From sequence record PP989838.1: 64,000 bases of DNA, one strand, 5' to 3'. Made by a program: the position numbers and the translations under genes. Origin of the DNA: Escherichia phage VTCCBPA_211. Below the pieces are notes generated by a model. The model was not told where the DNA came from and searched no databases. It worked only from the letters and a program-made list of their open reading frames with translations. Within the stretch, counting starts at the first letter, position 1. Every line of letters begins with the position of its first letter. Positions 2,253 to 47,600 of this stretch are shown piece by piece.

Positions 2253-2261
2253 TAATGTATA
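2253..2261 (+). promoter_or_regulatory. TAATGTATA element (putative phage-sigma promoter -10-like element)
   Basis: Exact 9-mer; one of five exact copies, all intergenic; followed by hairpin + boxA. Confidence 0.5.
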
Positions 2262-9379: not shown

Positions 9380-9456
9380 GCGCCCTTAGTTCAATTGGAC
9401 AGAACATCGGATTTCTAATCCGTCGGTTACAGGTTCGAATCCTGTAGGGTGCGCCA
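9380..9456 (+). tRNA. tRNA-Arg (anticodon UCU, reads AGA), CCA encoded
   Basis: Manual cloverleaf: acceptor GCGCCCT/AGGGTGC, D arm GTTC/GAAC, anticodon loop TTTCTAA, T arm ACAGG-TTCGAAT-CCTGT, 3' GCCA. Confidence 0.9.
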
Positions 9457-27992: not shown

Positions 27993-28201
27993 TGAAAAAG
28001 ATGTGGGCTATTCATGTTGTTTGGGATCTTGAGCAACACATGAGAAAAGATAGCATCAAATTGTTTGACACTCGCAAAGAGGCTCGTATTGCTAAGAAAC
28101 AGTTGAAGACTCTGGGCACAATAGTAAAAAGCGCTGACATACATCGCTGGTATGAAGGCCCTAACACTGGTTCTTTTATGTCTAAAGTAATTTACTACTG
28201 A
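27992..28201 (+). CDS. MKKxW/TRxxAR-family small protein, paralog 3 (69 aa)
   Basis: MKKMWAI..DTRKEARIAKKQ..KVIYY; TAATGA coupling. Confidence 0.6.
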   Translation: MKKMWAIHVVWDLEQHMRKDSIKLFDTRKEARIAKKQLKTLGTIVKSADIHRWYEGPNTGSFMSKVIYY

Positions 28202-28225
28202 TTGGTAGTAGATATGATAACTCTC

Positions 28226-28234
28226 AAATGTATA
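28226..28234 (+). promoter_or_regulatory. AAATGTATA, 8/9 match to the TAATGTATA phage-promoter element
   Basis: Intergenic, 40 nt upstream of the 28274 start. Confidence 0.4.
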
Positions 28235-38453: not shown

Positions 38454-38669
38454 ATGGAATACATTGATAAATACTCAAGTGAAGATTCAACAGACGCTGA
38501 AGTTTTGTTCATACTAAAAACTGACTGTCTTGAACATGGTCAACTTATCAATTTCATTGAGTTGGCAAAACTTAAAGAAGAGATAGATCAACTATACAGT
38601 GATGAGCAATCCAGATTACTTTCTCTATCCCTTCTAGGTGATTTAACTTGCGACGGGTGCACTATCTAA
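38454..38669 (+). CDS. hypothetical acidic protein (71 aa)
   Basis: Start 2 nt after the upstream stop; track ORF. Confidence 0.6.
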   Translation: MEYIDKYSSEDSTDAEVLFILKTDCLEHGQLINFIELAKLKEEIDQLYSDEQSRLLSLSLLGDLTCDGCTI

Positions 38670-38678
38670 GAGGTCTTT

Positions 38679-39182
38679 ATGGCTGAAGTTTATTTTGCAG
38701 GGGATGGTCACTTAGGCCATCGCAACATCTGTAGTTTTCGTAAGCAATTTAAAACCATCGAAGAACACGACAAAGCAATCCTAGCTGCATTTGATCATGT
38801 AACTAAGCGTGATAAAATCTTCTTTACCGGTGATTGGGTGTTTGAAAAGTATGCCCTTGATATCATCGCTGAAGTAAGAGGAGAGAAGCATCTAGTCTTA
38901 GGGAACCATGACAGGTTAGAACTTCTCCCTGATATGATGAAAGTCTTCCGTAGAATCTCTGGTGATTATAAATATAAAGAGTTTTGGGTAACTCATATTC
39001 CTATTCACACTGATGAGATGAGAGGGAAGTTTAATATTTATGCTCATACTCATAACCACGTAATTGATGATTGGAGATATTTCTGTACATCAATGGAGCA
39101 AATTAACTATAAAGCTGTTTCTCTGCAAGAGATTAGGAAGGTCTTTGATGAAAGAAGAAAAGAACAAGATCTCATTATTTAA
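38679..39182 (+). CDS. metallophosphoesterase (calcineurin-like, 167 aa)
   Basis: GDGHLGH, FFTGDW, LGNHD, HTH motifs. Confidence 0.75.
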   Translation: MAEVYFAGDGHLGHRNICSFRKQFKTIEEHDKAILAAFDHVTKRDKIFFTGDWVFEKYALDIIAEVRGEKHLVLGNHDRLELLPDMMKVFRRISGDYKYKEFWVTHIPIHTDEMRGKFNIYAHTHNHVIDDWRYFCTSMEQINYKAVSLQEIRKVFDERRKEQDLII

Positions 39183-39312
39183 AGAACCTGTAGTTTATAA
39201 AGACTCTATCAGAGATCAGTATAATGAGATGTTAAAGAAACAATCTGATTCTAATCTTCGTTATCAGAGGATAGTAGAACAAACTAACTTTAAAGGTTTA
39301 CTTGAATGGTAA
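39148..39312 (+). CDS. hypothetical small protein (54 aa)
   Basis: ATG 7 nt after AGGAAGG; internal start of track ORF 39064-39312. Confidence 0.45.
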   Translation: MKEEKNKISLFKEPVVYKDSIRDQYNEMLKKQSDSNLRYQRIVEQTNFKGLLEW

Positions 39313-39413
39313 CTTATATCCTTTACTTTTTAGCTTTCTTAGGAATAATCTTTTTATCTATTATTCTTGAATTTGGTTTAAGTAAGTTAGTTAATTATTT
39401 AGGTAATAAGTAA
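39306..39413 (+). CDS. micro-ORF, single-TM peptide (35 aa)
   Basis: ATGGTAA start/stop overlap; MVTYILYFLAFLGIIFLSIILEFGLSKLVNYLGNK. Confidence 0.35.
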   Translation: MVTYILYFLAFLGIIFLSIILEFGLSKLVNYLGNK

Positions 39414-39588
39414 TTATTATTCTTTTAAATAGAGAATCAAAGTCCCTAGGAGTCCCTACAACCTAAATCAAGGATTCCTTAATTCTCTATTTTTATCTCG
39501 CAGGTGGCTCCTGCCCTTCGGTACTTGCAAGGGATTCTGTGAATTGCCCAATATACAAGCCTGCAATAACTTTATCAGCTATACAATA

Positions 39589-39597
39589 TATACATTA
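39589..39597 (-). promoter_or_regulatory. TAATGTATA element on the minus strand (antisense-facing putative phage promoter)
   Basis: Exact 9-mer (TATACATTA on plus); inverted relative to the 39661 copy 64 bp away; no minus-strand gene downstream. Confidence 0.4.
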
Positions 39598-39660
39598 CTA
39601 GTGTGATATATCTACTACCAAAGATACTTATATTATATAGTACTCTTATCGGTATAAGCG

Positions 39661-39669
39661 TAATGTATA
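39661..39669 (+). promoter_or_regulatory. TAATGTATA element (putative phage-sigma promoter) upstream of the SSB operon
   Basis: Exact 9-mer, 60 nt upstream of the 39729 start. Confidence 0.6.
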
Positions 39670-39728
39670 CTATACATAACCGCTCAAAGAGAGCAACAAT
39701 CTTTCAAATTAAATAAGGAAATTAAAAT

Positions 39729-40475
39729 ATGTCTATGATTCCAACTATCGCAACTGCTTCCCGTAAATCCAACTACGATGTAATCCCTGATGGTGAGTAC
39801 GAAGCACGTATCGTTCGTGTAGTAGGTTTGGGTGTTCACAATCGTGACCCTTGGATTGACCCGAAGACCAAAGCAGTAACTCCTAAGAATCCGGCTTTCC
39901 GTATGGATTTAGCTTTCGAGCTGATTGGTGTTGATGCTACTGGTAAAGATTCCGATGGTAAGGCATTAGAACCACGTCCGGCTTGCCAGTTCAAGAGCTA
40001 TGATGTAAACCCACGAGCTAAGAACTCTGGTATTCTTGATCTTTGCAAGATGATTGACCCAAGTATTCAAGCACTGAAAGGTGATCTGTCTTGGTTCAAG
40101 GATGTTCTGTTAGGTCAGCCTGTTAACATTCTGGTTAACTCTTACACTAACAAAGCTGGTGAAGTTAAAAACTCCATCAAGACCATTTCTCCAATCCCAA
40201 CCAAATATCGTGCAGCAGTTGGTGAAGCTCGTAGTCCTCTGGTATTCTTCGAACCATATGCTGAAACCGACGAGAACGTAGCATCCTATCAACTGATGTT
40301 CCCGTTCCAGCGCAACCTGCTTACTCAAGCTAATGACGCTAAGAACATGCCTCTGGCTGGTCGTGAAATTACTCGTGCTTCTGAAACAGAGCAGAAAGAA
40401 GCTACTCCTTCAATCCCTACGATTGATAAAGAGCCTGCTTCTACTTACGAAGACGACAACGATAGCCCATTCTAA
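39729..40475 (+). CDS. single-stranded DNA-binding protein, T7 gp2.5-like (248 aa)
   Basis: Acidic C-terminal tail ending ..YEDDNDSPF (aromatic terminal residue as in gp2.5/SSB tails); RBS TAAGGAA. Confidence 0.65.
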   Translation: MSMIPTIATASRKSNYDVIPDGEYEARIVRVVGLGVHNRDPWIDPKTKAVTPKNPAFRMDLAFELIGVDATGKDSDGKALEPRPACQFKSYDVNPRAKNSGILDLCKMIDPSIQALKGDLSWFKDVLLGQPVNILVNSYTNKAGEVKNSIKTISPIPTKYRAAVGEARSPLVFFEPYAETDENVASYQLMFPFQRNLLTQANDAKNMPLAGREITRASETEQKEATPSIPTIDKEPASTYEDDNDSPF

Positions 40476-40497
40476 GTAACTCTCCTTGTTATAGCTT

Positions 40498-40520
40498 AGC
40501 CACCTTCGGGTGGCTTTTTT
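40498..40520 (+). terminator. rho-independent terminator (UUCG tetraloop)
   Basis: AGCCACC-TTCG-GGTGGCT followed by TTTTT. Confidence 0.9.
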
Positions 40521-40768
40521 CGTTGGAGACAATATGCAAAGTACATTAAGTGATAATGTAGGGTTTATCATTTTCTCAGCTCTTGTATTCTTTGGTGGTA
40601 TGAAGTTTAACGAGTACCAAACAGACAGCAGTAATCTGGACAAAGAGAAGCACCAGCAAGAGTTAGAGATTGAAAGAAGTAGGGCAGCTGATGAAGTTGC
40701 TCAGAGGGTTCTTACCGGTTTGTCTAACTGGAAGAAGAACACGGAAACTATTTATAAAGAGATGCATT

Positions 40769-42058
<1,290 letters not shown>

Positions 42059-44665: not shown

Positions 44666-47600
44666 TCACTCCTTAGGTCGAACTCTTACACGGAGTCTCG
44701 ATTGACGCTTACTGCGTTCAAGCTTCTCTGACAATGAGCCACGTTTAATCTTCGGCTTCCCTTCGTCATTAAACTTCTCCAAGAACTTCAAGTACTCAGT
44801 ACGATTCGTTGTCTTGTAAGAAGGAATCTTAACATCAGGGTTCTCTTCGATTACACGTCTCATCTTCGCTACATCATCCCTACCAAGCAACTTACTCTTA
44901 GCCTGTTCAGCTGTAGAACCAAAGATCTTCTCCAGTGCCCTAGATTTGTTACCACCTGCGGAAGAAGCACCAAGTTTAGCAATGGCAGAGTAATCATCAG
45001 CACTAAACCAAGCTACTGGATTATCACCATACTTCTTCTTGTTTTCAGCAGCAGTCTGCAATGCACGCACAAAGCGACGGTTGTTACCAGCCTTATCTGC
45101 ACCATGAACCCTGTCTAAAACTTCAGCCACACTAGCCAACTCATCCAAGCTCTTCCCACTCAAGAAAGCTTTCTCTACTTTATCAGCAAAGACCTCTTCT
45201 TGTTGTTTAATGCTTTCCAAGATATCAGAATTTGCTTGAGATTTTTCATCATCAGGCAGAGCAGAACGAATCTTCTCCATCTCCAACTCTTCCTCTTGCA
45301 GTTTCTTAATATCAGAGTCAACCTTCTGAGCCTCCTCAACAGCCTTCCTAGTATCCGAATCCAAGTTATCAAGCTTACCTTCAGTATTTCCAGTAACCTT
45401 AACAATCTCTTTCTCGATAGGAGTCATTGATTCGTACTTCTTAGCGAACTTCTCAACATCAGCTTCGATACGAGAGCGAGCATTCTGATGTTCAGTCGGA
45501 GTCATAGGCTTCTCAAGAAGTGCATAACGGTTATCCATATAGGAACCAGCAAACGCTTCAGCATCCTCTCTAGATATGCCCTTATCTTCCATAGTACGCA
45601 TCAGGCGGCGATGAATGTCATCACGTTGACGTTGTACTGCCATAAGGTCATTCTCACGCTCTTGGGCCGCTTTAAGCTCTTCACTGCGCTTAACTCTCTT
45701 GTCCACATCAAACTTACGGTTCATCTCTTCCGCTTGCTCATACATCTTGTTCCACTTAGCCTGACGAGCATCTTCCTCTGCATCAGTTAAACGACGCTGA
45801 CGATCAAGGTAATCTGACTCGGCGTTGTGGATACGTTCAATATAACTACGGAACTTCTCTGGAGGAACTGGAGAGTTCTTATCGTGGTGAGCAGCCAACT
45901 GTTTCAGTGTACGAGATTCCTGAGCCTTACGAACAGGTTTAGGTAAACCTTCCATCATCTTCTCAATCTCACTCTTCTGAGCTGCAATAGCCTCTAGAGT
46001 TTTACGTTCATTCTCAACAGCAGCTTTAGCATCCGAACGAGCCTGAGCCTTTTTCCTGAGTGTAGCAAGACGTTCTTCACGAGCCTGTAAATGCTTAGCA
46101 GCAGCTTCGTACTGAGAGTTCTTGTTAGCTTTGTTGAAGGCATTCACTTCTCTGTTATAGGTGTTAATAAACCCATCCCAAATATCCTTCATCTGACCAA
46201 CTTCCAAAGCCTCTTCCCTACCAGCCTTCTCTGAAGATTTAAACTTTCCATCTACAAAGTCATTCATCAATTTACGCATAGCGTCTTTCTGAGCAGGACG
46301 TAAAGGTTCTGCATCAATCAAAGTATCAATCTCAGACTGAAGCTCTTTCTTCTGGTCAACCAGCTTAGGAGCATTCTTGTTATCGAAAGCTTTATTCTCT
46401 TCTAGAGCTTGTTGGTACAGTCTATCAAACTCATCTTCACGCTGCTTCTGATACAACCTTTCAGCACGACGTTTCAGACTATCCAAGTTAGTTACGTTCC
46501 CACCTAAACCTTTCTCTTCAGCACGTAATGCCTTAGTAGCAATGTCTTCTGGCAGACCACGTTCTTTAACCCATTCAGCAAAGTTAGTTCGTACAGTGTT
46601 GTTCTTAGCAGTAGCAATACCTTGCTGAGAAGCCAGCTGGTTACGAGCCATCTCTTCATGACGTTCAGTGTTGATAGCATTATCTTCCCGACGAATACGC
46701 CGCATCAACTCCAAAGGGTCTCCCTTGTAAGCCAAGAAGTTTTCAGCAGTAGCTTTAGCTTTAGCAGCCTTAGAGTATAAAGATTTAGCAAAACGTGTTG
46801 CACGATCTTTAGCAACTTGACGAGCAGTGCTTGACATAGCAGCTAGGAATTCTACACCACTTTCCGGTTTAACATCCTGTACAGCTTCCTGAGGAGCTTT
46901 AGGGGAACGGGTAGGTAATGGATCAGCTTGTCTTAGAGAACTAGCTTTGACCATATCATTTGAGTCAACCAAATTATGGTTACGCAAAAACTGTTGCTCA
47001 GCCGGGGTGAACTGATTTAGGCGAAGGGCAATGTTGCCATTTAAATCTTGAGAAAGTATCCCATCTTCAGCATAGTGAGAGAGAGATTCTTTAGTAACAG
47101 AAGATGCATCCTCTGATGAAGCCTTTTGGCCCTCTTCTTGAGCACGTTGCTGCTCTGTTGCACGGCGCTCCTCTAAAGGATTACGAGCAGGAAGAGGTTC
47201 AGCCTGTGGAGCTTGTTCAACAGGAGCTTCTTGAGCAGCCAATGCCTCTTCTTCAGCGCGACGCTGTTCAGCCTGACGGATAGCACGTCTTTGAGCAACT
47301 AAATCACGAGCCGTAAGAGGGGCTTCTTGAGGAGCAGAAGAAGGAAGATTTTCTTCCGTCACAGTACTAGAAGAAGGCTCCCGAACCGGTTCGGTTTCCA
47401 CGTCATTTTGCGTCTTAAAATTAATGTCATCAACAGCTGGTTCTTCTTCCATCTTAGTGCGAGCTTCATCAGCAGCGGATTTAGCACGAGCAACTTCCAA
47501 ATCACCACGAGCTAGAGAGCGGATAGCTTCACTGTTAGATTCTTGTTGCTTAACACGTTGAGAGCGAGCACGCTGAGAAGAGAAGCGATTCAGAGCATAT

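Follow-up and report, generated by a model that had tools for sequence, protein, structure and literature searches.

A putative leftward-facing gp36-type promoter and a candidate conserved, structured RNA upstream of gene 40 in phiEco32-like phages

Phage phiEco32 is a model for phage-encoded sigma factors (gp36, with gp79), and its transcription map is taken to hold six gp36 promoters. Escherichia coli RNA polymerase with phiEco32 gp36 uses promoters that have a single consensus element, tAATGTAtA, and start sites lie 6-8 bp downstream of it (PMC8948821). The six promoters listed for phiEco32 and five relatives in Table S3 of that study are the late promoters P6, P13 and P26 and the middle promoters P40, P58 and P68 (PMC8948821), and the SU10 genome paper gives the same tally of three middle and three late promoters. 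In 2025 a gp36-gp79 open complex on a middle promoter was solved by electron cryomicroscopy, with P68 as the middle promoter of the transcription assays; the N-terminal domain of gp36 reads AATG at -14 to -11, its C-terminal domain reads -37G and -34A, and both contacts are required for activity (PMC12276001). We analysed 64,000 nt of the phiEco32-like coliphage Escherichia phage VTCCBPA_211 (PP989838.1; this whole stretch is called the window below), and in it the non-coding gap before the homologue of gene 40, where a predicted promoter of this class, here termed Panti, points leftward, away from gene 40. Its architecture and conservation strongly back Panti as a seventh gp36 promoter, apparently unreported and of the P68 sub-type. 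We propose that it probably drives a new conserved, structured, non-coding RNA of about 155-165 nt, which would run from 39582 leftward to about 39420.

One described system with which this locus can be compared is the OOP RNA of lambda. It is 77 nt long and is transcribed leftward from pO, a promoter located between cII and O; it covers the 3' end of cII, a strong intrinsic terminator stops it, and it was once suspected of being a replication primer. Like OOP, the candidate here would be a short non-coding RNA with its own promoter, directed against a rightward operon and lying beside replication genes. Unlike OOP, the conserved block that would specify it stops 14 nt short of the upstream gene, at about 39421, and so does not overlap it; in addition, conservation is lacking in the upstream gene, the minus strand has a poor U-tract, and the two share no sequence similarity. 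Another comparison is with the T4 origins oriF(uvsY) and oriG(34) and the primary origin of T7, in which an AT-rich unwinding element lies downstream of the promoter. Shared with these are a phage-specific promoter (middle-mode in T4), a transcript that is not needed for protein and a position in a replication-gene region; in contrast to them, the AT-rich stretch here is upstream and the DNA downstream is a structured, partly G+C-rich block. ColE1 RNA II is about 550 nt long and is controlled by the antisense RNA I; the present candidate would resemble it in being structured, non-coding and close to its promoter, with a folding that could be important for what it does at the DNA.

The gap contains two exact copies of the 9-mer TAATGTATA, one on the minus strand (39589-39597) and the other on the plus strand (39661-39669). 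An earlier note on this DNA had reported such a divergent exact pair and called it a phage-promoter element, and both points are borne out, the motif being the published gp36 consensus. The two 9-mers are separated by 63 nt (39598-39660) and the corresponding 10-mers, GTAATGTATA, by 61 nt. The window has five exact copies of TAATGTATA where 0.65 would be expected, a number not reached in any of 100 shuffles; with one mismatch allowed the enrichment is gone (21 found, 19.4 expected). The fifth of these copies, at 2253-2261 (+), is on the coding strand of the early region, has neither the upstream GGTAGT box nor an A at -34, and is absent from the published promoter list. The plus copy in the gap is the published middle promoter P40, since Table S3 of PMC8948821 lists P40 with TAATGTATA.

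The minus copy is the -10 element of Panti and matches the gp36 consensus at nine of nine positions. With the gp36 -10 element spanning about -15 to -7, the -35 region of Panti, TTGGTAGTAGATAT at 39608-39621 (-), carries -37G and -34A within a GGTAGT at -37 to -32, and the predicted start is the A at 39582, 7 nt after the element. When all exact and near-exact sites in the window are aligned on their -10 elements, this 14-mer stands in the same register at Panti and at the P68 homologue (AAATGTATA at 28226), and these are its only two exact copies in the window. A scan of IMG/VR with the pattern TGGTAGTAKAT-N11-13-AATGTATA returned exactly P68 and Panti in each of five complete clade genomes. 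Panti thus shares with P68 and the gp36 promoters the -10 consensus, the register of TTGGTAGTAGATAT with -37G and -34A, clade-wide conservation and a start 7 nt on. It differs from them in that it opposes all neighbouring genes, is missing from the list of six and is a prediction from sequence; a gp36 promoter would be expected before a middle or late gene on the coding strand, and no conserved minus-strand open reading frame (ORF) lies downstream of Panti. GGTAGT at -37 to -32 is also found in P40 of ES17-type phages, and these three sites (P68, Panti and the ES17-type P40) suggest that it is the preferred gp36 -35 box. At P68 the -35 box GGTAGTAG is preceded by an inverted copy, ACTACT, giving a small palindrome (28192-28215, +), and the -35 arrangement of the ES17-type P40 is similar. 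Six stretches in IMG/VR contigs beyond the five clade genomes (L037, L038/L040/L044, L043 and L046) match TGGTAGTAKAT-N10-11-AATGTATA, a spacing 1-2 nt shorter than in the clade; they may be promoters of other phages or may match by chance.

Conservation was assessed in 16 annotated relatives from three genera together with IMG/VR and metagenome contigs, making 33 loci with 26 distinct versions of the leftward module. The earlier note had proposed looking for the minus copy in close relatives, and its -10 element is present intact in 32 of the 33 close-relative loci (Kuravirus, Suseptimavirus, Nieuwekanaalvirus). More distant relatives, with gp40 71-82% identical (L049-L056), also retain the module, which on the plus strand reads as a -35 box ACTACCA, a 14-nt spacing, a -10 element with the AATG core, 6 nt and a hairpin; on the minus strand their -10 element is TAATGAATA or GAATGTATT, with the spacing unchanged. 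The whole module is absent from relatives with gp40 63-70% identical (L022-L024, L057, L059, L060) and from phage 7-11, which have a short gap and a P40-type promoter. Because these phages are without it, the leftward module is a clade-specific insertion. Further IMG/VR scans for more variants returned only the five known genomes.

The earlier note had centred on the spacer between the two elements, which it described as AT-rich and repeat-like. The spacer (39598-39660), which holds both -35 regions, is indeed AT-rich, with 30% GC, a value as low as that being found in only 3.7% of 63-nt windows; as for repeats, it has only weak inverted ones. It is also the least conserved part of the gap and outside the -35 boxes is not conserved, MN05 and SR02 having lost 10 nt of it and ES17-type phages having gained about 120-146 bp. 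Most phages have 63 nt between the two -10 elements and some have 62, against 52 in MN05/SR02 and 183 in ES17, and because the distance varies in this way the promoter pair is not maintained as a fixed-geometry inverted repeat. The ES17-type insertion (L006 1400-1776, which is ES17, and L018 and L030-L034) contains an annotated 47-amino-acid ORF, and a hairpin in it, ACTACC-TTCC-GGTAGT, provides these phages with the consensus GGTAGT -35 box of their P40. The emphasis on the spacer is not supported: it is variable and tolerates indels, and the conserved, probably functional sequence, which the note overlooked, lies across Panti at 39420-39582.

This block is much better conserved than the synonymous sites of the adjacent gene. 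In 4E8, SU7 and KBNP1711, 39421-39522 is 97-99% identical, whereas gene 40 of the same phages is about 80% identical overall and the third positions of conserved codons 66-70%. Read leftward, the predicted RNA opens at nucleotide 1 with a hairpin, AUAGCU-GAUAA-AGUUAU (39566-39582, -), and in every variant its first nucleotide is the seventh past the -10 element. The 5' ends comprise ten distinct sequences in three unrelated families of stem sequence, and all give a 5-7 bp hairpin opening at nucleotide 1; about 5% of random 21-mers from the window fold like it. Close relatives show compensatory changes in its stem (UA to GC; CG to UA or AU) and also GC/GU alternation, and in distant relatives the sequence is wholly different (ACAUC...GAUGU, AUCUCU...AGAGGU) and still opens at nucleotide 1. 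Next comes a variable middle domain (39523-39561, -), bordered by conserved UUGCA and GAAGGGC, that exists in at least three unrelated versions: that of the window, that of ECBP2, MN05 and ES17 with a UCUCUCA/UGAGAGA hairpin, and that of L049/L054. The hairpin H2 (39500-39514, -) consists of GCAGG, a 5-nt loop and CCTGC; its stem is invariant in close relatives and becomes GCTGG/CCAGC in L051, where U-A has replaced A-U in a compensatory manner. H1 (39427-39492, -), which we propose as the 3' hairpin of the leftward RNA, has an outer stem 39427-39442/39477-39492 and inner pairs, a stem of 15-16 bp in the minus-sense RNA, and is nearly invariant in all module-bearing relatives, loops included. 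Conservation breaks off at the base of H1, which is 14 nt away from the stop codon upstream (39411-39413), and the left-hand gene beyond it varies among module-bearing relatives, being a phi32_41/42 homologue, LAMP gp40.1 or, directly, a long phosphoesterase. Within H1 the direct repeat AGTCCCTA occurs twice, 10 nt apart (39441-39458, +); variants of the Paul and ECBP2 types have a shorter unit, AGTCCT, at both places, 9 nt apart. An RNA structure or a binding site for a protein could underlie this repeat. With a covariance model built for the 3' domain, one copy is detected in the window, 39422-39519 (-), at 120 bits, and nothing in the loci without the module.

As to the strand, the evidence favours a minus-sense RNA, although not decisively. 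The fixed pairs 39438/39481 and 39441/39478 are G.U on a minus-sense RNA and C.A mismatches on the plus sense, the T39480C change of XT18 keeps its pairing (as G.U) on the minus sense only, and a G.U pair of the 5' hairpin in the window type and L051 likewise fits only a minus-sense RNA. Cells with G.U number 50 for the minus sense against 2 for the plus sense, and canonical cells 657 of 660 against 609 of 660. Folding thermodynamics favour the minus strand weakly, the window-type sequence giving -45.8 kcal/mol (z -2.3) there and -35.3 (z -0.9) in the opposite sense. GC skew, calculated on the plus strand, is -0.19 in the block and +0.11 in the surrounding plus-strand genes; only 1.4% of windows reach so low a value, and its sign is that of minus-strand genes. 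Position is the stronger argument: the 5' hairpin is anchored at the +1 of Panti, and on the plus strand it would lie between a terminator and the start of P40.

The alignments of relatives show no preserved ORF in the block on either strand. A 32-amino-acid TTG ORF at 39468-39566 (-) was considered as a protein-coding reading and rejected, as it is not kept across indels and domain swaps. Rfam 15 gave no relevant covariance-model match at E up to 10 for 38500-40700 on both strands, and the gap has no tRNA or tmRNA. An origin of the block from the host or a plasmid was also rejected, since searches of E. coli genomes, of plasmids and of 185,579 species genomes gave no match.

The explanation that we favour, with moderate confidence, is that host RNA polymerase with gp36 uses two back-to-back divergent promoters in the gap, both of which would fire from the middle phase, once gp36 and gp79 have redirected the host polymerase. 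P40 would yield the gene 40 mRNA, ending at the terminator at 40498-40515. We infer that Panti fires as well, and that it would yield a small RNA of about 160 nt composed of the 5' stem-loop, the lineage-variable middle, the G+C-rich H2 and the long H1. The 5' stem-loop would shield this RNA from 5'-end-dependent decay, and the 3' end is probably set at, trimmed back to or protected by H1. On the opposite strand, H1 followed by TTTTTAT probably ends rightward transcripts from the upstream genes, which would make gene 40 its own insulated unit. The invariance of H1 and H2, loops included, in phages that are about 70% identical at silent sites suggests a sequence-specific partner for the small RNA, either protein or nucleic acid. 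The 5' hairpin of the leftward RNA has a counterpart in the P40 mRNA, where GCUC-AAAGA-GAGC (39682-39694, +) lies close to the 5' end and varies in relatives to GUCC/GGAC, GUUCA/UGAAC and GUUC/GAAC, all of them compensatory; such hairpins thus seem to be a regular feature of gp36-dependent transcripts.

Several observations weigh against a minus-sense small RNA from Panti. A metagenome contig (L030; ERZ1034915 NODE-75) has TAATATATA as its Panti -10 element, a G-11A change that falls on the -11G contacted by gp36; it is the sole variant with an altered leftward -10 element. Panti is outside the six-promoter list of PMC8948821 and the SU10 genome paper, a comparison that extends to those two sources and not to the Pavlova 2012 mapping or Savalia 2008 genome papers. 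Literature searches on phiEco32 and antisense and on Gordonclarkvirinae transcripts found nothing relevant in full text. Past H1 the minus-strand sequence is AUUUAAAAG, a poor U-tract with only three U residues, and a scan of the minus strand for intrinsic terminators made no call in 38600-39420. The near-invariance of H1 and H2 leaves hardly any covariation, with one compensatory pair, and the count of G.U cells is biased, since the minus strand served to derive the structure. For the 3' domain the two strands have similar consensus folding energies, -26.8 on the minus and -24.0 on the plus strand, and H1 with TTTTTAT, taken alone, fits a plus-strand terminator. A target in trans inside the phage was sought by short-word BLAST of the block against the window and rejected, only chance-level matches of 9-13 nt being found.

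A different possibility is that the block acts as a plus-strand signal, as a terminator and/or an RNase III-type site that ends the P58 unit and insulates gene 40 without any functional RNA, Panti being silent or merely blocking read-through by convergent transcription or bound polymerase. The plus strand does carry an invariant T-run after H1 (39490-39494, TTTTTAT), the block starts right past the stop codon of whichever gene lies upstream, and the consensus energy on this strand nearly equals that on the minus strand. The plus-strand fold has an upper stem of 8 bp that an internal loop separates from a lower stem, a shape similar to that of phage RNase III sites. Processing of RNA at intergenic stem-loops has been proposed for phage 7-11. 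We nevertheless consider this explanation rather improbable. It leaves unexplained the perfect -35 and -10 elements at fixed geometry and the compensatory hairpin exactly at the +1 of Panti, in a region that would follow the terminator and precede the P40 start, and the fixed wobble positions pair on the minus sense only. H1 has an A+U-rich stem and a 38-nt interior, and the simple terminator scan made no call there.

Another possibility, to which we give a similarly low weight, is that the locus is a replication origin. Divergent gp36 transcription would open the spacer, or a leftward R-loop would prime leading-strand synthesis by the phage polymerase, and the conserved hairpins would guide the folding or processing of the primer RNA or would signal priming on the displaced DNA strand. 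The idea can be put more broadly, again with little confidence, as a leftward gp36-dependent structured RNA that determines the primary origin of phiEco32-clade phages, either because a persistent hybrid primes DNA or because the displaced strand signals priming. This would amount to a mechanism like that of ColE1 or T4 oriF in a podovirus that uses host RNA polymerase and its own sigma factor. Consistent with an origin are a strong phage-specific promoter with no gene behind it, the placing of the site in the replication-gene region (DNA polymerase upstream, putative single-stranded DNA-binding protein, SSB, downstream), a leftward RNA rich in G clusters, with a skew of -0.19 on the plus strand, the high conservation of the non-coding block and the 30% GC of the inter-promoter spacer. 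The AT-rich spacer, however, lies upstream of both promoters, unlike in T7, and tolerates the loss of 10 nt as well as the gain of about 120 nt, while downstream of Panti, past the 17-nt 5' hairpin, GC rises to 44% and then 60%. An iteron array is absent, the sole direct repeat being one of 8 nt. Relatives with gp40 63-70% identical and phage 7-11 are without the module, yet must replicate. Cumulative GC skew switches sign only at the transcription switch near 44.6 kb; skew follows the direction of transcription in this genome and is uninformative about an origin here. The T7-like analogy of the earlier note fares poorly, the AT-rich segment being upstream of both promoters; the GC skew shows no sign change at the site.

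The least probable alternative, and one we think very unlikely, is a long antisense RNA that represses 39306-39413, 39064-39312 and 38679-39182 through transcriptional interference or cleavage of double-stranded RNA by RNase III: the lack of a minus-strand intrinsic terminator in 38600-39420 and of more than three U residues after H1 would allow it, but the left-hand genes differ among relatives that share the module and conservation ends abruptly at the base of H1. Of the antisense promoter put forward in the earlier note, the leftward promoter itself is strongly backed (a P68-like -35/-10 arrangement, conservation across genera, a hairpin at +1), and the antisense transcript of the genes at 38679-39413 fits poorly, for the same two reasons.

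Rightward from the pair, P40 has its -10 element TAATGTATA at 39661-39669, an AGTACT resembling a -35 box at 39639-39644 (+) and a predicted start at 39676. It is kept in all relatives, including those that are without the leftward module. In the relatives with gp40 63-70% identical, a promoter GTACTCT-N14-TAATGGATA is found about 150 nt upstream of the gene 40 homologue and is followed by a different, repeat-rich 5' untranslated region (AGCTTAGCTTAGCTTTG...GCTAGCTTTGCTAG). A 37-amino-acid GTG ORF at 39603-39716 (+) was rejected, not being kept across indels and domain swaps. The gene 40 homologue itself occupies 39729-40475 (+) and is followed by the canonical terminator, which was called by the terminator scan at 40498-40515 (+).

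The product of gene 40 is a putative OB-fold single-stranded DNA-binding protein. AlphaFold, given an alignment of 28 sequences, modelled gp40 as an OB fold with pLDDT 81.7, whereas the model from the single sequence was useless (pLDDT 36). The top Foldseek matches of the model are SSB, PriB and RPA and are weak; the fold is closest to PrgE of plasmid pCF10. The C-terminal tail is acidic and SSB-like (...EDDNDSPF), and one GenBank record labels gp40 a single-stranded DNA-binding protein; gp40 has no PHROG function, no Pfam match and no sequence match in the PDB. To call it SSB-like is reasonable but unproven. The earlier note had named it the SSB gene, which is plausible on the OB-fold model and the acidic tail and is not established, given the missing annotation and the weak structural matches.

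In its wider context, the region 39200-39800 matches at least 98 phage records in a sequence search, and these belong without exception to phiEco32-like coliphages or Shigella phages; identity is 99.3% for the best match and 98.5% for phiEco32, which aligns in the reverse orientation. The equivalent gap in phiEco32 lies between phi32_41 and phi32_40, and the counterpart of the sigma-factor gene phi32_36 is at 41029-41673 of the window. The actual non-coding gap spans 39414-39728, or 315 bp, and is shorter than the 0.4 kb first described because a 35-amino-acid ORF at 39306-39413 (+) codes for a phi32_41 homologue (PHROG 24970). It sits in the replication-gene region, with the DNA polymerase gene upstream and the putative SSB gene downstream. 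The gene orientation given in the earlier note is correct, in that ORFs of at least 100 amino acids that tile the sequence are all on the plus strand up to about 44.56 kb; minus-strand late genes begin at 44666. The early region also has a tRNA-Arg gene (anticodon TCT) at 9380-9456 (+).

We propose that the leftward transcription unit comprises a further gp36 promoter and a candidate phage small RNA without a described family. The conserved non-coding unit behind Panti is a more interesting object than the promoter pair, and a role in origin function, if true, would raise that interest. If confirmed, the unit would add to the map of this model for phage-encoded sigma factors a seventh, antisense-facing promoter, the one with the strongest-looking architecture, together with a clade-specific conserved non-coding RNA. 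Its role, as far as we infer it, could be that of a regulator or of a replication primer, in a group of phages that is widely isolated for therapy.

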